Shown here: in pieces, positions 700 to 64,000 of the stretch
How positions within the stretch are numbered: the stretch's first letter is position 1
Layout: every line of letters begins with the position of its first letter
From: Pristiophorus japonicus
Taxonomy: Eukaryota
DNA length: 64,000 nt
NCBI RefSeq assembly: GCF_044704955.1
Contig: NC_091984.1
Location: forward strand, 145,452,001-145,516,000
Direction: 5' to 3'
Program-made: the position numbers and the translations under genes
Notes under the pieces: generated by a model
What the model was told of the DNA's origin: nothing
The model's input: only the letters and a program-made list of their open reading frames with translations
Databases searched by the model: none

Positions 700-2606
700 T
701 GTAGGTGGTTCTCTCAGCCGTACCAAAAATGCACCTCCTACTACAAGTTCTGGACGATAGGGATTATATGGATAGATGAGACTTGGACACACGTTTTTCG
801 GGTTCAACCGTATTGTGTTGAATAAGATGAACAACACCACTCATAAACAGTGCAAAATAGTACAACCCTGGCTTGTCCAATAAGCCCTGCCGTGCTAAGT
901 TAGCACAGCTTAATAAAAGGACCCTCCCATGAAATAAACGAACACAGGACCCCCCCTTGGGTTTGGTTGGGACTTACAATCACCCCCTCACACAGTTAAG
1001 TGGTCTTGTGGATGTGTAGGCGCAGGTAATATGCTCACACGGATTGCCCGTTGTCTTGCTTGCAGCTTCTTCCTGAACATCTCACTCCTGGGCTTTTTCA
1101 TGGCTTTTTCCTGGGCTTTTCTGAAGCTTTTACCTGAGCTTTTACCTGAGCTTTTTCCTGGGCTTTTTCCTGGGCTTTGTCCTGGGCTTTTTCCGGAGCG
1201 TTCTTCCTCCTGAGCTGGAGTTTGTTGCAAAGTGGCTCCTTATATCCCCAAAACTCATCACCTTTCCTCCCGCCAATACTGACCGATGGATTGACTACGG
1301 TGATTTGTCTGGATCCCCTCTCCCCGTAGAGCCTTTGATTCTTTGTGAAAAATGATGTTTTATTTTCCCGCTCCCAGACCTTGCGTCTGGAGAGACAATG
1401 GGTGCTGATTACTGGATGTCTGTCGTTTCCTGAGTTGATGGCCCCCATTAGCAGGTAATGGGTTTCGATCACAAACCGATCTTGCTTAACCGGCTTATCT
1501 CCTGGAAGACAATGGGCCGGCCATTTCCTGCCTTGCACCAGTTTGGGTTGGGACTGAGTTGTGACTGTGCTTTAATAATGCGAAGGCACAGTGTCTCTGA
1601 GTTACCTCTCGGGGTATTGTTCCCAGGAATCACTTTAGATGGTGATGACATCAATGGGCCTGGGTTCCCTGCCACCCAGCCTGTCAGTGTGAAATGTCCA
1701 GTTGGATATGAATGCAGCTTAGTGCCACCCCACAAGCTCGCCAAACAGTACAGTTCTTTCTTGTGAATCTGGATTTAAGGATTTAAAGTATTGTTGATAG
1801 AAATAGCCAGAAAGTTGGGGCTACAATCCCCCCGCTGATATTTTGTCACCAAAACCAGAAATATCTCGAATTGCGTCGTCTTCTGCTGTGGGAGGTGCAT
1901 TGTGGGTCCATTGCTGATCAATTACACCCGGGCTTCCGTTTCTTCTGATTTCCTGATTAAGACAAACATAACAACACCACCGTTCTGTGAGCGGTTTTCC
2001 CCTCCACAGGTTGGGCTTTCATTATTTACATATATATACAGTTCGTTCAGGTGTTATCGAGTGCCCCAGTTAAAATCTCTCCTGTTGGGGCATCTTGCGG
2101 CTCGCAGCCAGTGAGTAAGGAGGCGTCCACGGCGCCCTAGGCCATGGTATCCGACTGTTTCTCCTTACCGTCCCGCCCTCTGGGTCATCAGCATCGTCCC
2201 ACACCATGGGAGGAAGACCTGCGTCCACCAGGCTCATTATCATGCCCTGGTTTCTCTTTGCCTTTGTCTTCCCCCCATCGGGGTTAAACAACTTACATTG
2301 GTTGATATGGCAGCATTTTGTATGTTTCGGGAGTCTGACTGCATATCCCATGGGGCTGGCCTTATCTACGATGTTATAAGGCCCCATGTACAGTGGCTCG
2401 AATGCCCCCACTCGGGCACAGTTCCTGAACATTACCTGGTCTCCCACCTTCCACTCGTGACTTTTCCGGGGCTCGAGTAGCAACCGATGTTTCCCGGTGC
2501 TGGTTCCTCAGGTTACTGGCTGCCTGCCAGTGAATCTGTTTTCAAACATCAAACAGATTCTGGACAAACCTGTCCCGGTTTACCTCACGGTCATGAGCTC
2601 ATGTGA
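700..2606 (-). mobile_element. Retrovirus-like LTR element A, 3' portion only: integrase C-terminus, accessory region and 3' LTR (700-978)
   Basis: ORF 2070-2483 (WKVGDQVMFRN..EPLYMGPYNIVDKASPM, GPY/F integrase tail) is homologous to elements B and C. On the minus strand the PPT GAGGGGGTGAT precedes TGTAAG at 978, and the LTR ends CCTACA at 700. Confidence 0.75.
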
Positions 2607-3414
2607 TGTAGGGGGTTGGTTTTCCACGCTACTCTGATTCATAGACCTCAGGAATTACAGGAAAGACTCCACGTAATGCAAAGTTTAGGCTTAAACCCAA
2701 CTGTTATTTTGTGACACAAAAAACAGCTAAACATTACAGAACAAGACTTCTTAGAGATTGACCGAAGACATACAATCGCCCATCCAGCCAGTTGCTACTG
2801 TTGTCCATTGTCGGCTCGTGGAGCGAGGGAAGGTGTTGTGGCCCTGCTGCTGCTTCGTGGCTGTAGTTCATTGACCTGCTGGTCTGAGAAGTTTCTTCGA
2901 TCTGTTCTTCCTCTCTCTGAACCTTTGTTCTCAGCTCTTACAGATATATCCATTCGATTATACACATCTCCTGCTGGGCTGCCTTTCAGTTAATGCAGCT
3001 GGATGAGTCTCGATGGCTGTGGTGATGGGTCTGAATCTGTTCGGACGGCTACAATTCACACATGGAATCAACGGGGCAAAAGATAACTGCTTATCTTTTG
3101 AGCCCCGTTATCCAAGAATGCACGCCTTGTGGGATCCTTTATTGTCCTGGGTTTTTGCAGACTTGGAGTCTCCAGAGGGAACTGGTTTTCCCCTCCGGCC
3201 AATGGGCTCCTCTGCTTGATTGTATCAAACCCTTTGTCTCGATGTTAATCGGGTCTCGCTGCTGACCCCAGAAATCACATTAATCAGTGATCAGTCACCA
3301 CCTGCCCCAGGCTGGTGCTCTTTCTCCTGCCCAACAATCCCAAAGGTTTTCTTTTAAGCCATTTTAGTCCATGGCTCTTGCTGTACATCGATCATGAAAC
3401 ATATAACCTTTACA
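2607..3414 (-). repeat. 3' LTR of element B (~808 bp)
   Basis: The minus strand reads PPT AAAGGGGGAAG then TGTA at 3414, and ends CCTACA at 2607. It is homologous to 11187-11520. Confidence 0.8.
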
Positions 3415-3659
3415 CTTCCCCCTTTAATATGTCTTGTTATAAACTCAGAGATATTACACTAGGTGGCATCTTCTTCTTTCCATTGAGCTCTTTTGGGTGT
3501 ATTGCAGTCTTCAGTCAAATCTCCATATTACATACCTTTTACAACAAAACAATGTTTGGCCTTAATCCATCTGACTTCAGTTTTTATTTTTACAAACACT
3601 TTTGCCTTGGTTGATTTTAATAACCCTTCAAGATTCCCTTCCCTCATCTTTTGCTTTAA

Positions 3660-4728
3660 TTAACAGGACAAGACGAATAGATACAACACTATTACCAACT
3701 GTACAATTACTAACAAGTGTGATACAATTCGAACCCAGGAGGGGATCTCAATATTGAGTCCCACATCCCACTGTGGAGGGGCAATCATTTCTTCAATTTC
3801 CGCCCTTACTTTTTCGTTCTTTTGGTGTAACATGTAATAATGTTTCTGGGACAACTCGATGTTCTTTAACAGTTCAGTCAAATATTCGGGTCACGGTGGG
3901 ATATAGTATCCAACACGCGATATGTATCCCTGGAGGTTCGTAACGTATCATTGACTGTAATACGGATATGTTTGTGGTCTGAGATAGGAATTATTCTTTC
4001 TTGTGCTACTTGTGCCTCTACCTGGGGTTTGAAACAAAAGGATGAATCTTTCAGCATTTTAGGGAGAGGTTTTAATCTGCTTGCTATCAGTTCGGTCGCA
4101 TTTACTGCCTTTGGTCAAGATCACACAGGAATCAAAACCCTGCGTCCAATTCATTCCTGACCCGGAATCCTGCCATTGTCATTTAAAAACAATCCCCACA
4201 CCTCCCCTGCACTTGTGGCTAGATCCAACCACACAGACATAAATCCCTTGTTCCTCCTTCCACCACTTTTCCCAACACTATTTCGCCCCTTCTCTTGTTC
4301 CTGTGGTCCGCCTGTTTGAGTTATTACCCAGTTTCTCCCATTCTGTGGATGCATTAACTTTTCCCCTGTCTGTTTTCTGTAACCACCACCACCCTCCCAT
4401 GGGGGTAATCCCTTTACATTCCAGACAAACTCGTCTCCCCTCTCTCACCCGTACATTCCTGGCCGTGATGCCTGGGGCAGGACACTGACACCTCCCCAAG
4501 TTTACCCTTGGTTTGTCTGGAGTACTTGGTCGAATTTGACCCTAACCACCCTGGCCAGCTCCCAGTGTGAGCATAGGCGTTTGTGCCCTTGTTGCTCCGT
4601 ATGGCTCCCCCTTGAGTTACAGTGGGACCGGTTCCTCCCATACACCCATGTGTAAGGAATGTCTCGGTGTCTCCCCGATCTCCCAATCCTTTAATAATAA
4701 TGGCCATCCACAGGCCTATCCACAACAT
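3660..4728 (-). pseudogene. env-like type I membrane protein of element B (frameshifted)
   Basis: Lies between the integrase and the PPT. ATG at 4728 starts a hydrophobic signal-like MLWIGLWMAIIIKGLG. The C-terminal piece has a heptad-like helix (LTELLKNIELSQKHYYMLHQKNEKVRAEIEEM), Trp residues and a TM segment (IVSHLLVIVQLVIVLYLFVLSC). Confidence 0.6.
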
Positions 4729-4950
4729 CCACCTCCTCTCGTACCCTTGGCTCGATTCGCTCCTATAAAGACAAAAATGAAAGAAATACCTTTGCTCTGT
4801 GGGGCCTCCCCCTCACAGGTCCTCCTTCAGTTATTCACAAATGTACATAACTCCTTTTTACAATCACTGCTTCCCTCTCCTTTTATCCCGATGCTTGGGC
4901 TTACGGAGGCTCGGGGGTGGAGATGGAGGAGGTGTCCAGGGCACCCTAGG

Positions 4951-7900
4951 TCACAGTACCTGACCACTCCACCTTACTGCTCCGTCCCTTACTTCTCCAT
5001 CCTCATCATCCCACAGTATTGGTGGGAGGCTGACACTGATCAAACTCATTATTGTTCCTGGGGCCTTCGCCCGCTTTTTACTTTTCTCTCCGGGGTTGTA
5101 CAGCTTACACTGGTTTATATGGAACCATTTTATATGTTTTGGCAGCTGGATCGCGTACACCATAGGGCTTGCCTTGTCTACAATGCTATATGATCCTTTG
5201 TACAATGGTTCAAATGTCGCTATTCTGGTATAATTCCTGACCATTACCTGATCCCCTACCCTCCATTCCTGTGTAACCCGGAGTTCCAGCAGCAGTTTAT
5301 CCTGCTGGTGCTCGCTGCCCATATTGTTAGCTGTTTCCCAATGCAGCCCCTTCAGAGTATCATACAGATCTGGCAAACATGTCCTGTGTGACCTCTTTAA
5401 CCTGCGTTTCAGTCAGGACTGGTGCTAGGATATGAGTCGGGATCCTCATTAGTCTCCCTGTCATCATCGCATGTGGGGAGTGTCCCGTACTCTTAGAGAG
5501 ACTGGCTCGGTGGCTCATCAGTATTAGGGGTAGGGTCTCATTCCATTTCTTCAGGGTATTTCCTATCTCCTTCCTAAGCCTCTCTTTTAAGGTCCGGTTT
5601 GTCCTCGACTGGATCTAACGATTGGGGGTTATACGCCACATGAAATTTCCCCTGTATCCCTAACAGCTTTAGGGTGGCCTGCATTACTGCTCCGGTGAAA
5701 TGACTCCCTTGATCTGATTCCACTATCAGGGGCAGTCCCCATTGAGAAAATACTTCTCGCACCAGAATCTTTGCTGTGACTATCGCGGTGGCCCCGACAT
5801 GGAAAAGCTTCAACCCATTTTGTAAAGAGATGTATTAACACCAAGCACTATTTATTGCCTCTGCCTGAGGTGGGCAGTGGCCCAATGGAATCTATCTGTA
5901 TAGATTGCCATGGCCCCTCTACCCTCCTCGTGTGTCCCAACGGAGCCTTCCTCGGTGGGGGTGTGGATTGTTTGTGGCACATACCAGACAATTCTGGCAA
6001 TAATCCCTGACATCACTTCTAAGCCCGGGCCACCATCCCACGGCTTCTACTTTGTTCCACATTGTTTCTGGCCCTGGATGTCCAGCTCCTGGACCCACAT
6101 GCACCAGCTGCAAGAATTCTTCCCTGCACTGCCCTGGCACGCTCCAACTATCTCCATTGAACAACATTCCTTGCTTTACTGCTATGTCTGCAACTCCCAA
6201 AGGTCCCACTGCAGACTTCGCGTCTATTTTGTCCCTAATCGCTGCTCTAAGGTCTGCATCCCGTAGCTGAGCCTGTTTTAAATCAGGCGGCAATGGGACT
6301 TCTTTGGGCCCCTCGCTGCCTGTTACAGCCATGATCTCTCCACAGTGACATGGGTCCCAAGGTGTCCCTTCTCCTGCCCCTGTTTTAGCCAGCGTGTCTG
6401 CTTTCTCATTGCCTTCCCACTTGGACTCTGTCTTAGATTGTGCTTTGACCTTTTGGATGTAGTCACCCTTCTGGTCCGTACCCTTGACGTCCAAAATGAC
6501 TTTTAACAACGGAACCATCACCAACCATTTTCCGTTTGAGGGCTTAAACTATTGCCTCGCCAATATGGCTAAATACTCTGTACAGGAGTTAGAAATGAAC
6601 ATGGAGTCTGAACATATCGTATAGGGAGTTGGGAATTCGTTCGGGTGTGTGACTACATACGCTACCGCTACTAGCTCGGTCTGCTGAGTACTCAAAGTGT
6701 TGGGGATTATATGGCTTTCTCTGTCACTGACTCTGGATCGTAAATCCCACAGCCTGTCTTTCTCTCTCTGTTTATTACTGAACTGGACCCATCTACACAG
6801 ATGTCCCTGCCTGCCGGGTGTTCTCCTGCTCAGAACACTGAACACACATGAGCTGCCCCCGGATAAACCAGGCTCGGGGCTAGCTTTGGTTCTCCTGGCC
6901 TCTCGACCTTCAGGTCTAACTGAGTAAGCAACAATGTCCAGCGGGCAATCCTGTTACTGCTCACTGTCCCATCTTTCATTCTACCGTCCAGTAGCATTTG
7001 TGTCATTGTGTGACAGGTCAGTAAAGTTACTGTAGCTAACCCTGTGAGCGACCGAAAATGCTTCACTGCCCAAAATATTACTAACAGATGTCGTTCGCAA
7101 TTCGAAAAGCTCTTTTCTACTTCGGTGAGAACTCGGGAGGCGTAGGCCACTGGTCTCAGCTTGCTGTGTCGCTCCTGGAGTAACACTGCACTCAAACTGT
7201 CCCCAGTCATTGCTACCTCCAGACTAAAGTCCTGGTCCCCATTTACTGCTCCCGATGCTGGTGCTGTCTGTAACACCTCTTTTAACCAAATGAAAGTTTC
7301 CTGACAAGTCTCACTCCATTCCCACTCTACTCCTTTCCTAAGAAGCATCAACAAAGGAGCTGCCATGGTTATATATCCCTCTATGAATTCCCTGCAGTGA
7401 CCCGTTATTCCCAGAAAGACCTTATTCCAGACACGTCCTTAGGAACAGATAGTTCCTGGACTGACTTTCTCTTAGCTCCATCTATGGCCCTTTCTCCTGC
7501 CCTAATGGTCAAACCTGGAAACTGCACCTCCTCTTTGCCTATTTGAGCTCTCTGGGGATTTACTTTAAAACCTGCTTCTTTCAACAAATGCAGTAACTCA
7601 CTCAATAATGGCCCGTGGTCCCCCGCACTTTCGGAGAATAACAACAGGTCGTCCACATATTGGACCAACCGGTCTGGCTGACTAAAACCGTTTAATGCCT
7701 CGGCCATACTTTGGTGAAAGTTCGAGGGACTGTTGTGAAACCCTTGTGGAAGACATGTCCACATATACTGCTGACCTTTAAAGGTAAAGGTAGATTTATA
7801 CTGGTCCTCCCGTCTCAGGGGAATGGACCAAAACCCGTTTGAAATGTCCAGCACTGTGAAAGTTGTTATGGCCGCAGGGATACTCCCGATCAAATCCGCT

Positions 7901-8700
7901 ACCACTGCTACCGTGGGCGCACAGGCTGGAATATTTTTATTCAGGATTCGGTCATCTACCGTGGCCCTCCATGAGTTATCGGGCTTCTTTACTGGTCATA
8001 GGGGTGAGTTTACATGTGTGGCTATGGTCCTCAGCACACCTTGATCCACCAGGGAATTTATAGCAGTTTCCAAATCCCTTTCTGCTTCCCGGGGAAAATT
8101 ATACTGTTTCTGGGGTCGTGTCATCGAATCCCCATCTATCTTCACCTCTACCCTAGATACTATCCCGCAATCGGGCTTGTGCATTGCAAACGCATCTATA
8201 TTCTCCCGTACATACCCTTGATACTGGGCCGGAATGTTATCGACTAATCCTTCTAAATCATAACTCCCTTTCGGTTTCATCGTGCAGGTGCTGCCTTTGT
8301 CTGCACTGTCGCTGGGAATCACTACGATCTCTCCCATCTTATCTGCATCAACTGCCCGCCATAGACAATTGTTTTCCATACCCACTAAGGTGTGGTGTGC
8401 CAACATGTAGTCGGCCCCGAGAACTCCCAAACCGGGCTGTTCCCACTTCATTAAAATGCCCTCCCATTTCGTTATGTTCGGTCCTAACTCTACGGTTAAG
8501 GGTTTCCACACTGCCCCAGCCTGCTCATTACCCGTAAAACCCACCAGTGTAAATGGGACTCAGCTCGACCACGCGGAAGTGGTCAGATTCGGTGAGTGGA
8601 CAACCGTGCTAGAGGCTCCTGTATCTACTAGATCCCTTCTCCTAACTGTTTCCACCTTCACATCCACACATGGCCTGCCCCACCCATCATATATGAGCAG
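4951..8700 (-). pseudogene. pol of element B (PR-RT-tether-RNase H-IN), multiple frameshifts and stops
   Basis: Motifs: LVDTGAS; RPQKQYNFP; LDISNGFW; LPQGFHNSP; QYVDDLL; FSLEVAMTG (degenerate RH); ICSDS; GNEKADTLAK; HVGPGAGHPG..CQNCLVC; VESDQG. Confidence 0.9.
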
Positions 8701-8749
8701 ACACAGGTATTCTGGCTGGGCACACCGTCACAGTGGGGGTGCCGACACA

Positions 8750-10325
8750 TTGGGTCCCTTTTCTCCCACTGCTGCGTCCAGCTTTCCTCCACCTGTGCCC
8801 ATAACCTGCTGTAATGTGGCCACTAAAACCTGCACTGGGTCGTCGGCTACCTTCTTCTGGCCTTTTCCTGCCTCAGCACCTCGTACCCTGGCTTCCCTCC
8901 TTTAGAGAGCCTACAATCCTTGCTCCAGTGTCCCAACTTCCCACAGTTAAAACATTCACCTTCAGATCGACCCGCATTACCTCCCTCTTGTCTCCATTCT
9001 TTCTATGGCCTAACCTCTCCTTTTACTTCGTGTACCTTCCCGTTTAGTTTCTCCTCCTCCCCTTGCCTAGACTTAAAGCTAGAGTTAATCTTCTCAGCAC
9101 CCCTGCCTCTGTATTCTGGAGATGGTCTGGGTCAAACCATACTTCGACCTTTGCTCTGAGCCGTGGCAAACTGTTACCATTACGGTTCTCAGCCAATGGT
9201 CCCTGGGTTCCCCTATTAAATCTGCCCGTACCAGATTTCCTCCAGCGGCCCTGAAATAAATCGCCTACAGTCTGCAAACGTATCGGGCGATTCGTTTACT
9301 TGCTGCCTAGTCTGTTCTACCTGCCAGAACGGACTACCCTGACTGTACCCGAGCACTGCCATCATTTGCTCCTTTAAGCCCTGTGGGGTTCCTGCACCTA
9401 ACTTGGTGGCTGTCGACAAGCTCTGATAAAGCTTCCCCTCCAGCGAGAGCAGTGTCAGCTTCACTTTCTCCTCCTCGCTGCAGTTATTGATACCCTCTAT
9501 CTGCTCTATATTAGTAAAATGAACAGAGGCATCTCCTCCTTGCTTTAACTGTACTACACCCGTCAGCATCTCCTGCAGCTGAAGCGGTGTGTATGGGATC
9601 ACTAGTCGCTCTGTAATGGTGCCGGACCACCATTTGGGGGGGGTGGGCTGAATTTCTGCTGTCTCAAAGGACACATAGGTTTCGGGGGTCCCGGTGCCTC
9701 GGGAGCCGGCCGATGCTCGCTATACTCGGGCCCATAATCTGACTCTTTCTCCTCTGGATCCCAACCTTCCTCGCCTGTTCCGGGTGCCCTGAGACAAACC
9801 ATCCCTTTGGCCCCGTCTAACTCTGCCGTTAATTGGTGGATCTTTTCCTTACAAGGTCCGTGATCTGTTCTCGCGTAACCCTGTTTCTGAGCTACCTGAT
9901 AGGCTATCGACTCTCCTGAGCTGGTCCTCTGCCTCTTTGGCTCTTTCTAAATGCCTTTCACTTTGTTCAATGTGGATCTGCTGCTGCTTTTTGCAGTCGG
10001 TCACCTGGCATTGTAAATACTCAAAGTGATTCCACGCCGTTTCTTCCTTCCTACCCTGGTCCTGCCTTTCCTTCTCCACACTGCCTACCTCGCCCTTTAA
10101 CCCTTTATTCTCCTTCTCCAGCTTTCCTACCCTTTCTCTCAACAGTTGTGTCTGCTTCTGCAGGCACATGAGCCAAACCTCCTTCTCTTTTGACCCTTTG
10201 TGGTTACTACTGACTGTCCACTCTGCCGCATTTTCCTGCGGATCCCCAGAGTGCAGCATTTCCTGTGCCCATGGCACTGAAATGTCCAATTTGTTGCCTA
10301 TATATGCAGCTACCTTAGCCTCCAT
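8750..10325 (-). pseudogene. gag of element B (coiled-coil N-terminus, capsid-like region, CCHC knuckle)
   Basis: ORFs 9849-10325 and 9216-9674 are homologous to the gag of element C. CFNCGKLGHWSKDC occurs at ~8914-8955. Confidence 0.8.
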
Positions 10326-10419
10326 GGACTTCCTACAACTGCTCTAGCCGCGGACTCTGCCATGTTTTGCTGCGCTGAGTCCATTCCACTGCCTCTGGCT
10401 GAGAAATTCTCCCTGACTA

Positions 10420-11163: not shown

Positions 11164-11181
11164 GTCCTGCCGCAGTCACCA
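11164..11181 (-). promoter_or_regulatory. Primer-binding site, tRNA-Arg type
   Basis: Minus-strand TGGTGACTGCGGCAGGAC lies 5 nt after the LTR end. It matches 16/18 with the complement of the vertebrate tRNA-Arg 3' end GTCCTGCCGCGGTCGCCA (recalled), and both differences are CpG-type transitions. Confidence 0.75.
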
Positions 11182-29559: not shown

Positions 29560-29888
29560 CTACGCACATTCTGCTCTCCTGACCCCCTTGCTGAGGGGAG
29601 AGGAGAGGCTCTCGTGGGTGAGGCTGCAGGAGAAGCTGGCGTTGGACTCCCAGTCGGAGCCAGAGAGGGTCAGCAGGCTGCTGACACTGTAAGTGTTGTC
29701 CGAAGCTCGCAGGTAGTCGCTGGTCTGGACCCCGGCCGAAATGGTCTCCCCGTCCTTCTTCCACTCCACCTCCACCGCATCGGGGTAGAAATGATCGGCG
29801 AGGCACACCAGGGTTGCAGTGCCCTTGGTCGTGACCTCCTCCGGGGAGGGGGGCAGCAGGGTCAGCGTGGGTGGTGTCTTCCCTCGGC
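29560..29888 (-). CDS. IGKC: Immunoglobulin light-chain constant exon, kappa (shark type III/NS4-like), intact
   Basis: A polypyrimidine tract and AG acceptor at 29890-29889 (phase 1) precede RGKTPPTLTLLPPSPEEVTTKGTATLVCLADHFYPDAVEVEWKKDG...SDNTYSVSSLLTLSGSDWESNASFSCSLTHESLSSPLSKGVRRAECA*. It has the C1-set Cys/Trp/Cys pattern and a penultimate interchain Cys, and closely resembles remembered nurse shark kappa C. Confidence 0.93.
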
Positions 29889-30460
29889 CTGAAAGGGAGG
29901 AGAAGGATGTTTAATAGGTGTATATTAATGTGTGTGTGTGTGTGTGTCACTGTGGGTGTTTCCGTGAGAGTGCGCTTAAGTGCGTGTGCGTGGCCTTCTA
30001 GGCGAGCCGTACCCAGGAACCGCGATTCACCGGCAACTGTCTGAAGGGATTGGTGAGCATAGCCCCTGAACCCTCAGAGCTCTAACTTAGTTAGTTAGGG
30101 GAATTGGGAGGGGGGAGGCTGGGATAACTTGTGTAAATGTATCTGCATTCTCCTCTTCACCCCATTTAGAGTTTAAGCTGTATTCTTTTCCCCACAGGCT
30201 GTAATTTGACATTTTATTCAATGTGTTGTACCCCTCAGTGTGTATTGGTCTGTGTGTGTTATTAAAGGTGTGCCTTTTACTTCTTTTTAAACACAATAAA
30301 GCCATACCTGCTTCCTACCTTGAAACCGATTGTCTGTCCAAGTCTGTCACAGTCCCTTCATAATTCCAGTGTCTAGAACCAAGGGTGTGGGAGCGATTCG
30401 GAACCGTTCATATAAGGTCAGAAGGGAAAGCTTACCCTCTGCAAACCACCCCTTACATAA

Positions 30461-30478
30461 TGGCAACCCAGATGGGAC
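30461..30478 (+). promoter_or_regulatory. Primer-binding site, tRNA-Arg(CCG) type
   Basis: TGGCAACCCAGATGGGAC lies 3 nt after the LTR end ...TTACA. It matches 17/18 with the complement of the recalled tRNA-Arg(CCG) 3' end GTCCCATCTGGGTCGCCA. Confidence 0.8.
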
Positions 30479-30530
30479 ACTGGTACAATGGACGTGATAA
30501 GAGAGAGGCTGGTTTCAGGAAACGAAGCAA

Positions 30531-32165
30531 AATGGAAGAGGAGATTTCCTCGTATGTGTTTAAGAGGGTAAATGTGGCTAAGGAGTGGGTACTTGATCTA
30601 TTGTATGCTGAGCATCCAGAAGATGCTGCAGCTCAATGGACCGAGAGCAAGGACCATAAAAAGTCGACAGAGAAGGCCATTTGGCTAATTTGCCTTCAGC
30701 AACAGATCCGGCTTCTCGATGAGGAGAATGAGAAATTAAAGGGAGTATTGAGACAGGCAGAAGAGAGGTCCAGCGCAAGGGCCACAGTCGGGGAAAGGCT
30801 GTGGACAGAGGTGGGACAGTTAAAAGAAAGTAGAGAGCTCACTAAAGAAAGGCACAAAACCCAATTGGACCATTTACAGTGTCAGATTATTGAAGCCAAG
30901 AATAGCGAACTGGCATTGCGGGAAGAGAATCCCTGCCTCGCCAAGCAAGCTAAAGAGTACGGGCAGAGGGTGAGAAACATTCAGGTAGCCTATAAGGTAG
31001 CCAGTACCAGGGAATTTGAGGCAGGAGACCACGGCCCCTGCCAGCAGCAGATCCAAAGCTTGAACCTTGCTCTATCCCAGGCTAAAGGCATGGTGTGCCT
31101 GATAAACCCGGGTTTAGCCCAGAAACACCTGGTTGAGCAAGGAGAAACCCCTCAGTCACCGCCTGCAGCTCCCAGGAATGGCCCTGGGCAGCAGAGGTGT
31201 CAGCCAGAGTGCGGGGCAGGCAAGGATTACACCGGCATTCCCGAGTTTTAACTCAGCTTGGCAGCAGGGGAAAGAGGGCGAGCCAATACAAGAAGGGCCG
31301 GAACCAGGGCCAATGCACCCAGTCCGGCAGCAGAAGTTTGGCCCACCTGATGCCAATGGGGCAGCAGGACCCCTAGAAAGCAACTTCGTAGTCCCCCACG
31401 ACACCCAAAAACTGAGGGCTATGATAGGCCACCTAAGTAAGCTCACCCAACAGAGGGATCCCTTGGTACACTTCCTGGAAGTGGAACACACAGGGAATAT
31501 TAATGGGTGCGATGATTCAGAGCAGGCGAAGCTGTTGCTCTTCTCACTAGACACCAAGCTGTGCCATTCCCTCTCTGCAGACAGCAGAAAGGGGCGAAAC
31601 ACGTACGCTACGGTTAAGGAGGAGGTTCTAGAGGCCATAGGTATGAACGACGGGAGTCCTTTCTCCCGAGTGGAGAAAACAGTGCAGCTCTATGGGGAGA
31701 CTCCACAGGCTTTCGCCGACAGGTTGTGGCCGGTCTACGAAAGGGCCTGTAGTGGGGTTCTTGACCGGGCCCACCTGACCCCTAATGAGCTGGCTCACTG
31801 GCTCCGCAGCCTGGTGGCAAACAGCTTACCTGGAGTAAAGGCAAAAGCCCAGGTCTGGTTCGATCCAAGAGATCCCAGAACCACCGAGTAGACAGTGGTT
31901 AGACAGTTGACCCTGGCTTACTGGAACGGTAGAGGGACAGAGGAGCCCTCCTCTAAAGAGAGGGTCCATGAGATAAAACCCAGCCAAGGCAAGAGAGAGT
32001 GGCATCAGGAAGGTGGGAACCCTCCCCATAAAGGGGACAAGTGTTTTGGGTGTGGGAAAAGTGGGCACTGGAGGAAGGACTGTAGGAACCCATGGAAAGA
32101 GACTAAGGGAAAGGCCACTTCAGCCCCAACCCATAAGGCCGGGGCAGGAACACCGAGTACGATGC
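30531..32165 (+). pseudogene. gag of element C
   Basis: MEEEISSYVFKR.. coiled coil, then the capsid-like ORF 31133-31891 and the zinc knuckle CFGCGKSGHWRKDC. One frameshift and an in-frame stop are present. Confidence 0.85.
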
Positions 32166-32187
32166 CTGGACGAGACCGTGCGTTACG

Positions 32188-35100
32188 ATGGAGGTGGAGA
32201 AAGTGAAAGGGACCTACCTGCTAGATACTGGTGCTTCCAGCCCCCTTGTATATGCAGATAACCCAGCTATCTCACCTCTATCGAACGGGGTCCCGTACAG
32301 TCTCGTGGGGTTCACAGGCAATGAGCAAACTGGTTCGTTTTCCATCCTGCTCACCATTCAGTTAGGGACACTCAAAACCAAATGGAAGTGTGTCCTGATG
32401 AAATGGGAGCAGAAGGGAAAAGGGATCCTGGGGGCTGATTTTATCATTGGCCACCAGATCCTAGTGGATCTCAGGAACCACTGTCTATGGGGAGCCATAG
32501 TGACTGACAGGGAAGGTGAGGTGGCGGTGATCCCAGAAAAAGGGGCCAAGGGAACATTGTGTACCGTGAAGCCAAAGGAGGGTTATGACTTGGAATTACT
32601 GGTCAGTAACACCCCAGTGGAGTACCAGGCATATGTACGGGCACACCTTGCAGCATTCGCCACCCACAAACATGACTGTGGCAGGGTAACGGGGGTGGAA
32701 GTTAGTATAAAAGGGGACCCCATGACCCGACCACAAAAGCAATATAACTTCCCCAAGGAGGCAGAGGCAGACCTGACAACAGCGCTGGGATTACTGGTAG
32801 AGCAAGGGGTGTTAAGACCGATAGCAACCCATGTGAACTCTCCACAACTCATGGAGGGCCACCGTGGACTATCGAGTACTAAATAAGAATATCCCTGCCT
32901 GTGCACCCACTGTAGCAGCCGTAGCGGATCTCATGGGAGTATTCCAGCATCCGCGACCACTTTCACAGTGCTGGACATTTCAAATGGGTTCTGGTCCATT
33001 TCTTTAAAACGGGAGGACCAGTACAAGTTCACCTTTACCTTTAAGGGCCAACAATACACGTGGAACTGTCTTCCCCAAGGCTTCCACAACAGCTCCAGCA
33101 TTTTTCACCAATGTATGGCGAACTGTTTAAAGGGCTTTAGCAGACCCCAGCAGTTGGTGCAGTATGTGGATGACCTGCTCCTGTTCACCGATCAGGGGGA
33201 GGAGCATGACCCACTGCTGGCTGAGCTGCTGGAGCTGCTAAAAGAAGAAGGATTTAAAGTAAACCCCAATAAGGCACAGGTCGGCCAGAAGGAAGTCAAA
33301 TTCCTGGGGTTGACTCCGCGCTGGGGAAAGGACCATAGACAAGGCAAGAAGGGAGGCAGTACAAGAGTTACCAGCCCCCAACACAGTGACAGGGGTAAGA
33401 TCCTTTCTAGGACTCACCGGGTACTGCAGAGACTTCATTGAGGATTATGCAGCCACTGCAGCCCCTCTGCTCAGGCTCCTACACAAGGGTGTAGAGTGGG
33501 ACTGGAATGAGGGTTGCGAGGCAGCATTTAATCAGCTGAAGAAGAACTTGCAGACCGCGCCAGCCTTAGGAACGATAGATGTAGGAAAGGAGTTTTTCCT
33601 GGAGGTGGCAGCCAGCGGGGACAGTTTGAGCTCAGTGCTGCTTCAAGAGCGGCACGGCCAGCTGAGACTGGTGGTTTACTCCTCCAGGATCCTCACAGAT
33701 GTGGAAAAGGGGTACTCCAACTGTGAGAGACACTCCTAGCCACACATTGGGCAGTGAAAAGATCCTTGATCTTCACGGGAGGGTCTCCTCTTACACTCCT
33801 AACCCACCACACACCTACTCAGATGCTCCTAGATGGGAGGATTAAGGACGGGACGGTGAGCAGTGCCCGCATTGCTCGCTGGACACTGCTCCTCTCCCAG
33901 ATGGACCACAGAGTAGAAGGCCCCCGTGAGCCAATGCTCGCAGCCAACCTAATCTATCCAGGGAAAGCCCACAGGTGCTCCATTGAAGGGTTATGGGAGG
34001 TGAACATTGGCCTTCGGGCGGGGTTACACCCTACGGGCCGGGACATCTACGTGGACGGGTCCAGCACGGTATCTGTTGGCGAATGACTCACTGGGTGCGG
34101 AGTTTACGACCCAAGGGCAGGTATTGCCCTGGCAATCAAGCTCCCCAGCACCATGAGCGCCCAGCATGCTGAACTTTCCGCCGTAATGTACGTGGTGACC
34201 CACCCCGAGGAATTCCCTACCCCGTACACGATTTGCTCGGACAGTATGTTCACCTACAATTCATATACGGAGTACCTGGCTATCTGGTCCCATCGCGGAT
34301 ACACGTCCGCTGACGGGAGACCCCTGGCAATCAAGCCCCTGCTGGAGAAAATCATGACAGCGGTGGGGGAAGAGGGAAAGGTCTACATACATAAGGTGAA
34401 GGCCCATTCAAAAACCGAACCCCGTGCAGAGGGAAACCAACAGGCTGACAAACTGGCCAAAGAAGGTGCCCGCACGGGAAAGTTCTGGGACCCCTATGAC
34501 ACCGGCCGCATAGCAGCGGTCAAGAATAAGAACAGGGCAGCAGAGAGTACAGGGACAGCCTTGGCCCCGGACTTAAAAACAGTTCAGGCACAGGACCCAG
34601 TCCTGAAAGCTGTCCTGAATGCGCTAGCTAGAGGAGAGAGAGTAGAAGGTCCGTACGGCACAGCAGCCATTACCGTTAAGGAAGGCATGCTGTTTAAAGA
34701 GGGACAATGGGTCGTGCCACAGCAGCACCAGAGGGAATTCCTAAAACTGGCCCATGAGGGTCCAGGACCGGGACACCCCGGGCCTGAGACCACCTGGCAA
34801 CGGGTGGAACAGGCAGGATGGTGGCCGGGACTCAGGGAGGACATGCGCGAGTTCTGTGCGAACTGCCTGTTGTGTGCTGCGAACAACCCTGACCACCAGA
34901 AAAGGAAGGTGTCCCTAGGAAACGTCAGGAGGGTAGAGGGACCATGGCAGTCAATCCAAATTGACTGCATCGGGCCCCTACACACTGCCCAGGGAGGCTA
35001 CAAATACTGCCTCGTCCTGGTGGACTTGTTCTCAAAATGGGTTGAAGCCTTCCCCTGCTGAACAGCCACCGCACTAGGGACAGCTAAGATTCTAGTGAGG

Positions 35101-36267
35101 GAAGTGTTCTCCCGGTGGGGACTTCCACAGTATGTGGAGTCGGACCAGGGGAGCCATTTCACCGGGCAGGTAATGCAGGCAACCCTTAAGGTGCTCGGCA
35201 TTGAGGGGAAATGGCACGTTGCCCACAATCCACAGTCACCTGGTATTGTGGAGCGTTTAAACCGCACCATTAAAGAAAGGCTGCGGAAGGAAACGGGAGA
35301 CTCGCCCCAAAAGTGGGTAGAGGTCTTACCGTTGGTCCTAATGGGGATCCGAGCCAGTCAGTCAAAGAGCACGGGGTATTCCCCATATGAGCTCATGACT
35401 GGCTGGATCATGCGGACCCCCACCCATGTCCTAGCCCCGGTGCTCACAGAAGGTCAGCTCAGAGAGGTGAACTGCGACCGGTTTGTCAGGAACCTGTTTG
35501 AACACCTCAAACAGATTCACTGGCAGGCTGCTAGTAACATGGGCAGACAGCATCAGAGTAACCGATTGCTGCTAGAACCCAGCAAACACCACGAATGGGA
35601 GATAGGGGACCAGGTCATGGTGAGGAACTATGCTCGGGTCGGGGTTTTTGAAGCATTATATATGGGGCCATACAGCATTGTGGACAAGGCAAGCCCGATG
35701 GTCTATGCCATAAAGCTGCCCTGCCGTACTAAGTGGTTCCACATCAACCAGTGCAAGCTGTACAACCCAGGGTCAGCCAACCACAGAGGACAGCCGGGAC
35801 GGGTGAACTATCCTCAGGACAGGGACCCTCCGTTGGCCGCCCCCGACAGTGGAGGGCCCACAGGGAATGTGGCAGGCTCAGAAACCATGCCTATAGGGGC
35901 GGTGAATTGCAGTACTGGAGGGGCTATCCCACCCATCGTTTGGGATTCGGACGCACTCCCAGTAACCCAAGCCCTGAGAAGGACCCTCCATACGCCACGG
36001 CCAAAGATACCGCGGTCACCGGCATCTGAGCCTCAGCGATTCTACCCTAGGAGAAGGGCAGCCCGACAGGAAAGGCCGAAGATCAGAAGTACAGAGGCCG
36101 CTCAGAGTAGGGACCACCAGCCAGCCGCCTCCAGCGGTGAGGGTCTCACAGGAGCAGTAGCAACGAGCTTTCCCAGAGACAAGGGTTTCCAGCTCACCGG
36201 CTGCGGGGAAACCCTCGCACCCAGGCAGCTATCAGGCCGCACAAGGCATGGGCCTGACAGGGACTAA
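32188..36267 (+). pseudogene. pol of element C (PR-RT-tether-RNase H-IN)
   Basis: Motifs: LLDTGAS; RPQKQYNFP; LDISNGFW; LPQGFHNS; YVDD; FFLEVAASG; IYVDGSS..SAQHAEL..CSDS..KVKAHS..GNQQADKLAK; HHCC; IQID / ESDQG / VERLN; MGPY. Confidence 0.93.
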
Positions 36268-36828
36268 CCAGGCCACCCGGAGACCGGTGGCGGTTGTACA
36301 TAGCTCTACTTTTAGTTTAAGGCAGCTGACTGCAACATTTTACATTTTAAGGTTTAGTTTAGAATTGAGGTTAATGTTGCAGTAATGTTTAGGTGATTAT
36401 TTTGAGTTTGTCTTGTGTGTCAGCCAGCCTGAGACCAGTTCTCAAGGACAGGATCTAGACATTACCGGGTGATGGACAAACCTCAGGAGACCAATTGATG
36501 TTGTTTAGTTTTAATCTATGTTTTCTTTCCTTCTGTAATGTGGTTGTACATTGCCTATATGCTGGTGAATATAATGTAACTGAAATGAAATATAACTGTG
36601 CTGAAATGCAATTGTAGTAATTGAACCCCCTCCAAGCTGGGAGGGTATAAATGTAAAAAGTTTTTACCTGTAAAGGGGAAAGTGTGCATCTATGGTGATG
36701 TTGCATAAGTGTAATGCATTTTGGCTGTTAGTTTAGCTAATTTACGGGGAAGGTTATCTCTTGGGAGTCAGGAACTTTGCTCACCTCGAAGGATGATACC
36801 ATAAGTGATATGGTATCACAGGGGGGAA

Positions 36829-38359
36829 TGTAGAATTTACCAATATCTCGCAAAGATTCCAGGTACCTTTCCTCTGCAGAGGAGAAGAATCCCTTTCTGG
36901 ACTTTTAAAATGGAAAGAAAACTTTGGGACACAAATGAATTTTAAAGGGGCAGACGAGGTCTGCAGGGGATAAAAGGGGGTGCATTCATGGAGACCACCC
37001 CCCAGTGTTTGGACTCATAGGAAAGGGAATTTAATTTTGAACTATCTACCAGAAAGTTTGAAATCCTAAAGTGCACATGGAAGAAACTACGAACTTTAAT
37101 CGAATTTGGGATTTTTAAAAGGTGTATGTTGGGTTTGCAAGAAAAGGGGTGGAGTCAATATCTAAAGGGCCAGTTTGGACATTGGAACTAATCAAATTGT
37201 CTGGGAACTGTATACCCTCGAAACTTGCCCCTTGAAAACATTAGCATTTAAACAATGCCACATACATATTCCAACACCTTTTCAACAGGCATGGAAATAT
37301 CTGGCTCAGGCCAGACAAGCACAATGGAGAGCTCATCAACTTCGAAAAGCCTATTAACGCCAGATTAAAACCACTTAATCAAGTTTCAGTTAGCTGGGCT
37401 AGATTTGATGGGAGATAACGGAGCCTTTTTTTGTGGGTATATCTATTCCCAGTTTTACCAAGGAACAGACTCGAACAGCAGAACACAGACTCAAACACTG
37501 ACAGACACAAGCAGCCGGAAGTGAGGAGTGAAGAAATGGAGTAGTGAAGGAAACTACAAGAAATCATCAAGGACCGACTGAGCACGAGGCCCACGAAATG
37601 GAAGGTTGTCAGCAACCAAATTGACAACCCGGGCCACCACAACCAGCGAAACGACCAACCAAAACCAACTCAGAAAAAACCGAAGAATCGACATTTATTT
37701 CCACTCTACAATCTACTTCGGAATGACCAACGGGTGAGAAATGACCAAAAGGGACTAACTAAACTATTCCTAACCAAAGAAAGTGGGTACTTACCCCATA
37801 CATCCAAAACGCAACTTACCGCATCAATGGACGCACCCCAACCAAAGACTACGCAGTCCGAAGTCCTCTCCTCCGACTGAGGTACGGCTCACCTAGAAGG
37901 CCAAGTGCAGCGAACCCCGAAACCGTGATTCACCGGCAACTGTCTAAAGGGATTGGTGAGCATGGCCCCTGAACCCTCAGAGCTATAACTTAGTTAGTTC
38001 GGGGAATTGGGGGAGGGAGGCTGGGATAACTTGTGCAAATATATCTGCATTCGCCTCTTTACCCCATTTAGAGTTTAAGCTGTATTCTTTTCCTCACAGA
38101 CTGTAATTGGACAATTTATTCAATGTGTTGTACCCCTCAGTGTGTATTGGTCTGTGTGTGTTATTAAAGGTATGCCTTTTACTTCTTTTTAAGCACAATG
38201 AAGCCATACCTGCTTCCTACCTTGAAACCGGTTGTCTGTCCAAGTCTGTCACAGTCCCTTCATAATTCCAGTGTCTAGAACCAAGGGTGTGGGAGCGATT
38301 CGGAACCGCTCATATAAGGTCAGAAGGGAAAGCTGACCCCCTGCAAACCACCCCTGACA
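36829..38359 (+). repeat. 3' LTR of element C (1531 bp)
   Basis: Starts TGTAG directly after the PPT and ends ..CCCCTGACA, where homology to the 5' LTR stops. Confidence 0.85.
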
Positions 38360-43355: not shown

Positions 43356-46300
43356 TATTATTTATGTATACTTGTATTTACTCTGTACAGCCATCAGAGG
43401 GCTCATCCCCTGGAGTCCCAAAGGATCCCATAATCTCTTGGGAGCACAGGTATTTAAGGAGGCTTCACAGGTTAGAGAGGCACTCTGGAGACCTGCAATA
43501 AAAGACTACGGTCACACTTTACTTTGAGCTCACTGTTCAGTCTGACTCTTTCTCCATACACAACAACTGACGACGAGATACAGATAGTGAACCCAAAGAT
43601 GCAGAGAACAGTGGGCATCCTGGAGAAATTCTCGGAGGAAGATGATTGGAAAACTTTTGTGGAGTGACTCAACAAATATTTCGTGGCCAATGAGCTAGAT
43701 GGGGAAGAGAGCACTGCCAAACGAAGGGCGAAACTCCTCACCATCTGTGGGGCACCAACTTATGGCCTCATGAAGAATCTGCTCACTCCAGCGAAACCCA
43801 CGGAAAAATCATACGCCAATTTGTGCATACTGGTCCGAGAGCATTTGAACCCAAAGGAAAGCATTCTGATGCTGAGTTATCGGTTCCACACCTGCAAAAG
43901 GTCTGAAGGCCAGGAAGTGGCGAGTTATGTCACCGAGCTAAGACGCCTTGCAGGACATTGCGAATTTGAAGGACATTTGGAGCACATGCGCAGAGACTTT
44001 TTCATATTTGGGATTGGCTATGAAACCATACTTCGCAAACTTTTGACTGTAGAGACCCCAACCTTAATTAAGGGCATAGCGATAGCCCAGGTGTTCATTG
44101 CCATCAATGACAATAGGAAGCAAATCTCTCAGCACCAAATTGCTGCTACAAATACAGTGAACAAACTGATTTGTTTTTGAATCATAACGTACAGGGCAGG
44201 TCACACATACCTGCAGCTACATGACCGCAGATGTCTCAGAGTCCACCATCAAGGGTGATGAGTGCAAGCTATTAACACCTTGTTGGCGCTGCGGGGGTGA
44301 TCATCGCTTCTATTCATGCCGATTCAAAGACTACGTTTGCAGGGAATGTAGTACAATGGGACGCCTCCAACGAGTGTGCAGGTGAGCTGCAAAGCCTGTT
44401 AAATCTGCAAACCACCAGAGGAGGACAGATCCACACAGGGTCACGACGAACCAGAGCCTCAGATCGAGGAGGCAGAGGTACATAGGGTGCACACATTCAT
44501 CACGAATTGTCCCCCGATAATGCTGAATGTTGAACGAAATGGACTCCCGGTCTCAATGGAGCTGGACACGGGCATGAGCCAGTCCATCATGCGCAAAATG
44601 ACTTTCAAAAAGTTGTGGTGCAACAAGGCCTCGAGGCCAGTCTTAACTCCAGTTCGCACGAAACTAAGAACTTGCACGAAAGAACTGATTCCTGTAATTG
44701 GCAGTGCTACCATAAAGGTCTCCTACGATGGAGCGGTGCAAAAGCTACCACTCTGGGTGGTACCGGGCGATGGTCCCACGCTGCTCAGCAGGAGCTGGCT
44801 GCGAAAGATACGCTGGAACTGGGATGACGTCCGAGTGCGATCGCCTGCTGACGACACTTCATGTGCCCAGGTCTTAAACAAATTTTCTTCTCTGTTTAAA
44901 CCATTCATCGGGAAATTCCAAGGATCAAAAATGCAGATCCACCTAATTCCGGCGGCACAACCCATCCATCACAAGGCGAGAGCAGTATCGTACAAGGGTA
45001 GAGATTGAGCTAGACTGGCTGCAAAGAGAGGGCATCATTTCGCGGATCGAGTTCAATGAGTGGGCCAGTCCTATCATCCCAGTCCTCAAGGGAAATGGCA
45101 CCGTCAGAATCTGTGGCGATGACAAAGTAACTATCAATTGTTTCTCCCTGCAGGACCAATAGCTACTACCAAAGGCTGCTGACCTCTTTGCAATGCTGGC
45201 GGGAGGAAAGACGTTCACAAAGCTGGATCTGACTTCAGCCGACATGACGCAGGAACTGGAGGAATCATCGAAGGCCCTCACCTGCATTAACATGCACAAA
45301 GGTCTTTTTGTTTATAACAGATGCCCGTTTGGAATCCGATTGTCGGCAGCGCTATTCTAGAGAAACATGGAAAGCTTACTGAAGTCAATCCCGCACACCG
45401 TGGTCTTCCAGGATGACATCTTGGTCACGGGTCGGAACACAGTCAAGCACCTGCAGAACATGGAGGAGGTTCTTAGTCGACTCAACCGCATGGGGCTCAG
45501 GTTAAAACGCTCGAAGTGCATTTTCCTGGTGCCTGAAGTGGAGTTCCTGGGAAGAAGGATTGCGGCGGACAGCATCAGGCCCACCAACGCGAAGACGGAG
45601 GCAATCGAGAACACACTGAGGCCGCAGAATGTGACGGAGCTGCGGTTGTTTCTGGGACTCCTGAACTACTTTGGTAACTTCTTACAGGGTCTCAGCACAC
45701 TGTTAGAACCACTGTATGTCTTACTACGAAAAGGGGATGAATGGGTTTGCGGCAAAAGCCAAGAAAATGCCTTTGTAAAAGCGAGAAAATTGCTATGCTC
45801 AAACAAATTGCTTGTGTTGTATGATCCATGTCAGCGTTTGGTACTAACATGTGATGCGTCGTCAGATGGCATCAGGTATATATTGCAACAAGCTAATGAT
45901 TTCGGGAAAATGCAACCAGTTGCTTTTGCATCCAGATGTCTGTCTGAGGCTGAGAGAGCCTACAGTATGATTGAGAAAGAAACGTTAGCGTGTGCATATG
46001 TGGTAGAGAAAATGCATCAATATCTGTTTGGGATAAAATTTGAATTGGAAACTGACCATAATTCACTTATATCGCTGTTTTCCGAGAGAAAAGGGATAAA
46101 TACCAACACATCGGCCTGCATCCAGAGATGGGCGCTTATGTTGTCCGCATACAACTTCGCCATCCGCCACAGGCCAGCCACAGAAAACTGCGCCGATGCT
46201 TTCAGCAGGCTGCCATTGGCCACCACAGGGATGGAATTGGCGCAGCCCGCAGATCTAGGCATGGGTATGGAAGCATTTGAGAGTGAGCAATCACCCGTCA

Positions 46301-59234: not shown

Positions 59235-59402
59235 AAACATAGAAACATAGAAACATAGAAAATAGGTGCAGGAGTAGGCCATTCGGCCCCTCGAGCCCGC
59301 ACCACCATTCAATGAATTCATGGCTGAACATGCAACTTCAGTACCCCATTCCTGCGTTCTTGCCATACCCCTTGATCTCCCTAGTAGTAAGGACTACATC
59401 TA
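59235..59402 (-). mobile_element. Short CR1 3' end inserted in the Gypsy RT
   Basis: (AGAAACAT)n tail; the Gypsy sequence resumes at AAGAATCGCGGCAGAC. Confidence 0.85.
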
Positions 59403-62940: not shown

Positions 62941-64000
62941 GTTATGTTCCAACAAATTGCTTGTTCTGTATAACCTATATAAACGTTTAGTGCTAGCTTG
63001 CGATTCATCTTCGTACGGGGTCAGGTGTGTGTTACAACAAGTAAACGAATCGGGTAAAATGCAACCGGTCCCCTATGCATTCAGGAGTTTGTCTAAGGCC
63101 GAAAGCATGATTGAAAAAGAAACTCTGGCATGCGATTACCGGGTGGAAAAAATGCACCAGTATCTGTTTGGTCTCAAGTTTGAGTTAAAAACTGACCATA
63201 AGCCAATCATATCGCTATTCTAAGAGAGCAAAGGGATTAATACCAATGCCTCTGACGGCAATCAAAGATGGGCGCTCACGCTGTCTGCATATAACTATGT
63301 AATCTGCCACAGACCAGGCACAGAGAACTGTGCTGATGCTCTCAGTCAGCTACCATTGCCCACCACCGGGGTGGAAATGGCACAGCCTGCAGAATTGCTC
63401 TTGGTGATGGATGCATTTGAAAGTGAAATGTCACCCGTTACGGCCCGCCAGATCAGGACCTGGACCAGCCAGGATCCTTTACTGTCCCTTGTAAAAAAAC
63501 TGTGTGCTCCATGGGAGCTGGTCCAGTGTCCCATCGGAGATGCATGAAGAGATCAAGCTATTGTAGTGGCACAAAGATGACATGTCCATACAGGTGGACT
63601 GTCTTTTGTGGGGCAATCACATGGTTTTGCCTAAGAAAGGCAGAGAAACATTCTTAGGCGACCTACATATTACCCATCCAGGAATAGTAATGATGAAAGC
63701 TATAGCCAGATCCCATCTGTGGTGGCCCGGCATCGACTCTGATTTGGCGTCATGTGTGCGCCAATGCAACACTTGCTCTCAACTGAGCAATGCACCTAGA
63801 GAGTCACCGCTAAGTTTGTGGTCATGGCTCTCCAAACCGTGGTCTCGGATCCACGTTGACTTTGCGGGCCCATTTCTAGGCAAAATGTTTTAGTTGTTGT
63901 GAATGTTTATTCAAAATGGATTGAGTGTGTAATAATGTCTGTAAACATATCCACTGCCACCATCGAAAGCCTATGAGCCATGTTCACCATACACGGCCTG

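Follow-up and report, generated by a model that had tools for sequence, protein, structure and literature searches.

Endogenous retroviruses of the shark Pristiophorus japonicus that group with true retroviruses by reverse transcriptase and have sister copies with a predicted F-type envelope

Elements A, B and C of the window

The stretch of DNA analyzed here (64,000 nucleotides of contig NC_091984.1 of Pristiophorus japonicus, positions 145,452,001 to 145,516,000, hereafter "the window") contains three members of an endogenous retrovirus (ERV) family, which we call elements A, B and C. The subject of this work is that family (the shark family), including its sister copies elsewhere in the genome. 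Element C (30008..38359, + strand) retains recognizable gag and pol genes between two long terminal repeats (LTRs), B has in addition a remnant of env, and of A the integrase end is seen (Table 1). Both C and B are dead germline copies, non-coding today. The gag gene of C carries a frameshift and a stop and has lost the gag-pol junction to a deletion; its capsid-like region is a lead that comes solely from the ESM Atlas and was obtained on the Gag of one sister copy. The 5' LTR of two other C-type copies aligns end to end with the 3' LTR of C (~94.7%). The divergence of the C LTR pair (Kimura two-parameter distance, K2P, of 0.058) translates into 13-130 million years at published rates of 2.2e-9 and 2.2e-10 per site per year, a weak estimate because the 5' end of C is rearranged; since this end is missing, the target duplication is unreadable. 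The env remnant of B matches the envelope protein (Env) of a sister copy by tblastn at residues 7-209 (E 3e-45) and 620-777 (E 2e-26).

The truncation of the C LTR sits at a fold-back junction (window 29991-30018). Two paralogous segments (L196 and L198, around 1547-2000) are 99% identical to the window from 29991 to ~43500-44000 and have a 450-bp inverted LTR piece upstream, where the window has an immunoglobulin (Ig) exon. Since they differ upstream of 29991, the window carries a rearrangement or an assembly breakpoint there. The exon (29560-29890, - strand, ~100 bp from element C) is an Ig constant exon (C1-set, E 6e-25) that, from its motifs, we take to be light-chain-like; a simple pattern scan of the 64-kb window gave no V, J or recombination signal sequence motifs. 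Beyond the integrase of element A, a decayed frame with a QEKA-type repeat (~1000-1950, - strand) has no match to the family Env.

Table 1. Features of elements A, B and C (positions in the window).
Element	Feature	Position	Strand	Remarks
C	5' LTR remnant, last 450 bp only, end TACA	30008..30457	+	94.2% to 37911-38359; K2P 0.058, 449 sites
C	Primer-binding site, tRNA-Arg(CCG)	30461..30478	+	17/18 bases identical to host tRNA
C	gag: coiled-coil N-terminus, capsid-like region, CCHC knuckle 32042-32083	30460..32154	+	motif reading, Pfam
C	Aspartic protease (LLDTGAS) and spacer	32155..32727	+	Pfam gag-asp_proteas E 0.012, under cut-off
C	Reverse transcriptase (RPQKQY 32728, LDISNGFW, LPQGFHNS, YVDD 33163)	32728..33530	+	frameshifts near 32850-32890 and near 33330
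C	Tether: degenerate Gypsy-type RNase H without catalytic D-E-D; FFLEVAASG 33593	33531..33930	+	frameshift near 33733
C	Second RNase H, catalytic type D-E-D-H-D; YVDGSS 34048	34036..34476	+	stop codon 34084-34086
C	Integrase (H2C2 zinc finger, core, SH3-like C-terminal domain) and low-complexity tail	34714..36267	+	stop codon 35059-35061
C	Non-coding spacer, 560 nt, polypurine tract at its end; no env	36268..36828	+	
C	Complete 3' LTR, 1,531 bp, TGTA...GACA	36829..38359	+	
B	Primer-binding site, tRNA-Arg(TCG)	11164..11181	-	16/18 bases; adjoins 5' LTR remnant ending at 11187
B	gag (CCHC) and pol, both broken: protease, RT, tether, RNase H, integrase	4930..10330	-	gag-pol stop context TGA CGG
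B	env remnant: N-terminal Ig-like part and C-terminal/transmembrane part; ~400 central codons gone	3597..4770	-	
B	3' LTR, 807 bp	2607..3413	-	just 71% like B 5' LTR remnant over 203 bp
A	Integrase end of third family member, adjoins B 3' LTR	2115..2606	-	tblastn 65-67% to sister Pol

Tether, second RNase H and primer sites

Pfam recovers from C and B the order RVT_1 (the reverse transcriptase, RT; E 3e-32), RT_RNaseH_2 (2e-17 in C, 6e-21 in B), RNase_H (5e-17 in C), Integrase_H2C2 and rve. A Gypsy element of the same window (LTCDAS at 45844) has RT_RNaseH and, by Pfam, no second RNase_H. In the alignment the catalytic positions of the tether read A-H-H in the shark family, versus D-E-D in 12 out of 12 Gypsy rows. 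The second RNase H is complete (D-E-D-H-D) in intact open reading frames (ORFs) of sister copies; in C the piece downstream of the stop codon has E-D-H-D and the first D is found upstream of it. The corresponding motifs of B (- strand) are FSLEVAMTG (7228), CVDGSS, QQTEL, CSDS, KVKAQS and GNEKAD. The original prediction, made from the sequence by eye, had described in both elements a Gypsy-type RNase H fold lacking the catalytic Asp and followed by a second RNase H, and Pfam and the alignment confirm it. The motifs it had named for C are all in place (including SAQHAEL, CSDS, KVKAHS, GNQQADKLAK and the CCHC knuckle of Gag at 32042), the knuckle is present in B too, and the primer sites of both elements do fit tRNA-Arg. 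The combination of tether and second RNase H is common to all retroviruses, hence not diagnostic for lokiretroviruses (Loki).

Sister copies in the genome

The P. japonicus genome (5.9 Gb) gave at least 150 matches to the RT of B, at 77-100% identity, and at least 150 to the RNase H of C, at 93-100%. Among the best 150 RT matches, 19 sit in open frames of at least 1,400 codons. Eight such long-ORF copies were inspected and all have LTRs of ~1.3 kb, gag, an in-frame stop and pol, while a third ORF, encoding Env, is found in seven. This env-bearing subfamily (L021-L036) is young: the K2P of the LTR pair is 0.002-0.010 in six copies, versus 0.058 for C, and target duplications of exactly 4 bp flank four of six. 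It uses two alternative primer sites, each beginning TGGCGACC. The Env ORF had 138 scored matches at 95% identity or more in the genome. The Env profile found no match in C nor in any of five further C-type copies.

Sixteen of the 20 best matches to the B RT fall within a 5-Mb interval (143.4-148.3 Mb) at 92-100% identity, a clustering that suggests segmental duplication rather than separate insertions. A block of 340 bp in the LTR of C (36988-37327) is 91-94% like the LTR of the env-bearing subfamily (L021, 638-960), and the pol genes are only 77% alike; from this shared block, LTR exchange between the C and the env-bearing subfamilies is the apparent explanation.

Phylogenetic placement of Pol

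For comparison we have used the snakehead retrovirus (SnRV; L146/L183, 10,688 nt), taken as the sequence whose RT matches the published SnRV row, and two Loki contigs (L184 and L187) matched by eye to published Loki rows; the remaining viral loci were labeled from their layout and tree position. SnRV was the best RT match (43.7% identity, 224 bits versus 180 for the next) among the 35 matching loci of 61, and over the RT core SnRV scored 191 bits, foamy viruses no more than 133 and Loki 119-122. The original prediction had heard an echo of foamy virus in the RT motifs. Foamy RT is indeed the top match in PDB, in a match list that showed no SnRV entry, but SnRV is echoed more, and LDISNGFW is exact in it.

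In the four trees that contain RT, Loki and Gypsy are separated from all retroviruses, the shark family included, with supports of 99/92 to 100/99 (99/95 in the 74-row RT tree, 100/99 in both the RT plus tether and the whole-Pol trees). The foamy clade (100/99-100) excludes the shark family, and so does the Gypsy clade (100/99-100) in every RT-containing tree. The approximately unbiased (AU) test on RT rejects a clade of the family, its frog and coelacanth relatives and Loki (p 0.016), as well as one of the shark rows with Loki (p 0.045). Along the same lines, a signature that we read off the 21 Loki rows of data set S3 of Wang and Han, and that is not a published criterion, is [CLM]PFG[YL] in 20 of them and TPFGY in the other, LPQGF being found in none; the shark family reads LPQGFHNS(P) instead. 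This Loki motif, as an exact pattern only, had no matches in the viral contigs nor in the P. japonicus genome, and a scan of the viral contigs for related loci found nothing. The RT trees thus sustain the view that this is a retrovirus and not an ordinary Gypsy element.

The trees drew on rows that filled most of each domain: fragments under 55-60% of the domain, a partial Loki (L190) and near-duplicate Gypsy, foamy and gamma rows were dropped, and no lentivirus row was present. In the whole-Pol tree SnRV, foamy and class I come together at 95/99 with the shark family outside, and in the RT plus tether tree at 82/95. In Loki the integrase groups with CGIN1 and the RNase H with foamy viruses; in the shark family the integrase is nearest to Loki by score, in a tree that is unresolved and has no CGIN1 row, and the trees of RNase H only and tether only are polytomies. 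A position before SnRV, foamy and class I is a lead and not a result, and long branches are involved. The basal retroviral lineage of the original prediction therefore fits the best trees (RT plus tether, whole Pol), although the AU tests leave alternative clades unrejected.

The envelope of the sister copies

The Env ORF, 777 aa long, begins with a signal-like stretch and contains an Ig motif (DQGIYLC), a cleavage site (RQRR), helical repeats and a single transmembrane segment; the CX6CC and LQNR motifs are absent from it. A 50% library contains 48 relatives, of which the named ones come from sharks, skates and frogs, the closest being those of sharks and skates, which by itself makes a cartilaginous fish the very likely host. 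An Ig-like N-terminal domain is predicted from an Ig_3 match (E 0.017, under the cut-off), the DQGIYLC motif and the annotations of the relatives.

We have modeled this Env on a 37-row alignment, the single-sequence fold having given a predicted local distance difference test score (pLDDT) of only 33. The model matches the F proteins of human parainfluenza virus 3, respiratory syncytial virus and henipavirus (Foldseek E 2e-11), and its superposition on F (VIA) has Z 12.7 over 368 residues with a root-mean-square deviation (rmsd) of 18, or Z 11.7 over 288 with rmsd 5.5. The ESM Atlas links Env to the Baculo_F and Fusion_gly clusters (0.94), and feline foamy Env matches the model with E 2e-4. 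Searches of Pfam and PDB by sequence detected no F similarity for this Env.

The family Env profile scores 50-53 bits on Loki Env, and at most 3.5 bits on 13 partial gamma, epsilon, delta and foamy ORFs. By hhalign Loki Env reaches 97.6% (profile E 1e-17), and SnRV Env 89% (E 2e-6 over 349 columns), a weak link. The SnRV Env itself (L183, 6131-9532) has a profile score of 4.9 against a shuffle maximum of 2.1, and its sequence suggests that it may also be F-type. The env-bearing sisters are thus predicted to encode an Ig-tipped Env with, by the model, a paramyxovirus-F fold; its sequence is nearer to that of the Loki protein than to that of SnRV. An Env related to the F proteins of Mononegavirales is a Loki trait, and it is found in the sister subfamily and in the B remnant; C has no env.

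Some annotated gene models of sharks (P0018, P0019, P0070 and P0103, annotated as Niban 1-like, cadherin-related 5-like, ZFP2-like and fbxo15) include fused fragments of this Env, either through exonization or as annotation artifacts.

Gag-pol junction and proposed life cycle

In the sister copies gag and pol share one frame and are split by a single UGA. The ten copies viewed and both Loki contigs have UGA-CUA at this junction, whereas B has UGA-CGG and SnRV has UAG-GGC. Both UGA-CUA and UGA-CGG are described as readthrough contexts in PMC13517186.

The layout of the family is LTR, primer-binding site, gag, pol, env in some copies, polypurine tract and LTR, and it likely replicated like a simple retrovirus. 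Retroviral reverse transcription is primed by a tRNA, and tRNA-Arg would be the primer here. The second RNase H would cut the RNA strand and the tether would be structural, as it is in murine leukemia virus and human immunodeficiency virus. A structural tether together with a catalytic C-terminal RNase H is also what Wang and Han (PMC7947760) describe for retroviruses. Gag-Pol would be made through stop-codon readthrough. The env-bearing subfamilies would have a furin-cleaved fusion protein and probably spread by infection, and the C subfamily, having lost env, probably spread inside cells or with a borrowed Env.

Comparison with known retroviral lineages

The original prediction had held that it would be refuted if the family were already catalogued in sharks, and this is largely the case, by comparison with a chimaera. 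The lineage I of CmiERV, from the elephant shark (Han 2015, PMC4422223), is a chondrichthyan ERV published as clustering with SnRV. Our comparison consists of motifs read by eye in its scaffold 2 sequence. Scaffold 2 encodes ATHKHDCGR, LDISNGFWSIP, LPQGFHNSP, FHLEVA...CERHLLA and KWYHVNQ, thereby agreeing with the shark family in the signatures of RT, tether and integrase, and its Gag has a CCHC knuckle; given these shared signatures, a chondrichthyan representative of the Pol lineage had already been described. The differences are a gamma-type Env (LQNRMALD, CX6CC) where the shark family has an F-type one, another primer-binding site and an LTR of ~0.83 kb.

SnRV resembles the shark family in that its gag and pol are in frame with each other, separated by a stop and of comparable length (625+1398 versus 665+1423 codons), and in the CCHC knuckle of Gag, which is absent from the Loki Gag tested. 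It is unlike it in a much longer Env, accessory ORFs, divergent tether and integrase and the UAG-GGC junction. SnRV-related ERVs have been placed in the clade Huo (class III), which spans the major groups of vertebrates without exception (Xu et al. 2018, PMC6001957), and are described as still unclassified and possibly having a zinc finger (Chong et al.).

Loki elements (Wang and Han 2021, PMC7947760) share with the family the tether and RNase H, an F-like Env and the UGA-CUA junction, and have the nearest tether and integrase among the named groups. They are unlike it in RT position and signature and in a long spacer between protease and RT (the RT begins ~210 residues into Pol in the shark family and ~640 in Loki, ~430 extra residues); conversely, the predicted Ig-like N-terminal domain is a feature of the shark Env. 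The Odin retrotransposon, an element of sea anemones without env, has an RT that is sister to that of Loki; that the family is not an Odin element would follow, indirectly, from the Loki comparison.

The closest relatives found are frog and coelacanth elements annotated as 'NYNRIN-like' (P0002-P0005) and P0020, with RT identities of 50-53% and the same domain order. They are known as gene models only, and group with the shark family at 95/83 on RT, the other trees leaving this unresolved. In one of them (P0002) an Ig domain stands at the end, with a match to the N-terminal part of a member of the Env family (E 3e-32).

Foamy viruses differ from the family in protease, Gag and tether, and in that their gag and pol overlap in different frames. 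They are recognized by a Gag without CCHC knuckle, a pol in a separate overlapping frame and an A9 protease; no match to the A9 protease family was found in the shark family proteins.

Alternative origins of the family

Taken together, these observations make it quite probable that B and C are dead copies of an ERV family that groups with true retroviruses on RT, likely within an early-branching grade with SnRV and CmiERV lineage I, and likely replicating as a simple retrovirus. A number of points weigh against this interpretation. The grouping with SnRV is weak in the RT tree (66/84), and SnRV stands apart from the family in the RT plus tether, 3'-half and whole-Pol trees, a clade of both being unrejected on whole Pol (p 0.27). 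Whole Pol also formally leaves a clade with Loki unrejected (p 0.066), and a clade with foamy viruses is unrejected on RT (p 0.155) and on whole Pol (p 0.33). In a quick tree the foamy branch shifted once class II rows were added. Sampling is thin: Loki is represented by only two full Pol rows and SnRV by one, and the trees lack rows of Odin, ERV-L, fish foamy-like elements and CmiERV. The tether scores 66-73 bits to Loki versus 26 to SnRV, the integrase 168-170 versus 118, and the Env profile gives SnRV Env only 4.9 bits, shuffle maxima being 1.4-2.8, so that Loki comes before SnRV there as well. As to the predicted biology, the Env model is middling (pLDDT 61, predicted template modeling score 0.42) and poor in the Ig region, and no stem-loop above shuffles follows the gag-pol stop (z -1.1 to +1.7, four sequences).

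Such disagreement between regions could mean that the family is a recombinant of an SnRV-like protease and RT with a Loki-derived tether, RNase H, integrase and env. The best named match does change along Pol, from SnRV in RT to Loki in tether and integrase (identities to SnRV and Loki are 42% vs 37% in RT, 25% vs 38% in the tether and 34% vs 44% in the integrase), and envelope swaps are evident within the lineage because CmiERV lineage I has a gamma-type Env. However, the RT topology is accepted by the 3' half of Pol (AU p 0.51) and by the integrase alone (p 0.30), and therefore no mosaic of Pol is needed. The Gypsy tethers, at 35-36% identity, are about as near as that of Loki, which points to slow evolution; the second RNase H favors SnRV over Loki (41 versus 32 bits), and the Loki-like junction is located upstream of RT. 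We consider a recombinant origin improbable. A mosaic Pol was considered and is unsupported, both the 3' half and the integrase being compatible with the RT topology.

Slightly less probable still is that the family is a divergent lokiretrovirus, or a sister of Loki and Odin, filling a gap in cartilaginous fishes, where Wang and Han (PMC7947760) reported Loki in none of six chondrichthyan genomes. Of the named groups Loki is the nearest in tether, integrase and Env, the junction is that of both Loki contigs, and a clade with Loki is formally unrejected on whole Pol, so that the link to Loki made in the original prediction had some ground outside RT. Loki are, however, defined through the position of RT, and it is the RT (trees, AU tests and signature) that excludes the family from them. 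The CCHC Gag and the early start of RT within Pol do not fit either, nor does the lack of exact matches to the Loki motif in the genome. The shark family does not fill the Loki gap in cartilaginous fishes. In the preferred reading, an early-branching retrovirus, the Loki-like tether, integrase, Env and junction would best be read as ancestral states retained in a slowly evolving lineage.

The other affinity proposed for the family, to spumaviruses, is very improbable. It could draw on the best PDB match of RT, on the F fold of foamy Env (PMC11468914) and its match to the Env model, and on the unrejected sister relation. Against it, the foamy clade closes without the family, in a sampling that leaves fish foamy-like elements outside, and the CCHC Gag, the in-frame gag-pol stop, the lack of a match to the foamy protease and a tether identity of only 14-19% all disagree. 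A Ty3/Gypsy element that independently gained a second RNase H is hardly credible: a comparable gain exists in a metagenome element (L185), Gypsy RNase H profiles still recognize the tether, and the Gag is similar to that of retrotransposons, but in none of the RT-containing trees does the family fall within the Gypsy clade.

Implications for the origin of retroviral envelopes

What is new in the family is an Ig-tipped, Loki-related F-type Env on a Pol like that of CmiERV lineage I and SnRV, plus a possible basal position; the Pol lineage was already known. We found no description of such a combination in the searchable literature, a coverage that leaves out most subscription journals and Repbase. 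Since an F-like Env, a tether and a second RNase H occur here in a family that is not Loki, these three together are not diagnostic of a lokiretrovirus.

We can also entertain, as a tentative idea that we would not bet on, that the family and its relatives from frogs and coelacanth were the first to branch off among the canonical retroviruses, after Loki and before SnRV, foamy viruses and orthoretroviruses, and that they have kept the ancestral set of a tether with little decay, an integrase resembling that of Loki, readthrough at UGA-CUA and an F-type Env. If so, an F-type Env would have been present before Loki and retroviruses diverged, and the gamma-type Env would be a later replacement, visible within the lineage in CmiERV lineage I, which would argue against independent origins of env. 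Wang and Han (PMC7947760) put forward four ways in which retroviral env could have arisen. The combination of a canonical Pol with an F-type Env that, among named ones, is nearest to Loki Env, the weak link to SnRV Env and the F fold of foamy Env favor a single ancestral F-type envelope followed by replacement, and an F-type envelope may be ancestral in retroviruses. Element C by itself is an ordinary dead provirus; the family, which has young, high-copy members, would be a sample from the base of the retrovirus tree.

Other elements

The window also contains ordinary Gypsy elements with a catalytic RNase H, at 43392-46859, 57077-59236 and 62943-64000, two related copies being ~72-76% alike. 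The metagenome element L185 (1133-5431) combines an RT of the Gypsy clade with a domain resembling a tether and with a second RNase H of catalytic type, in what appears to be an independent gain.

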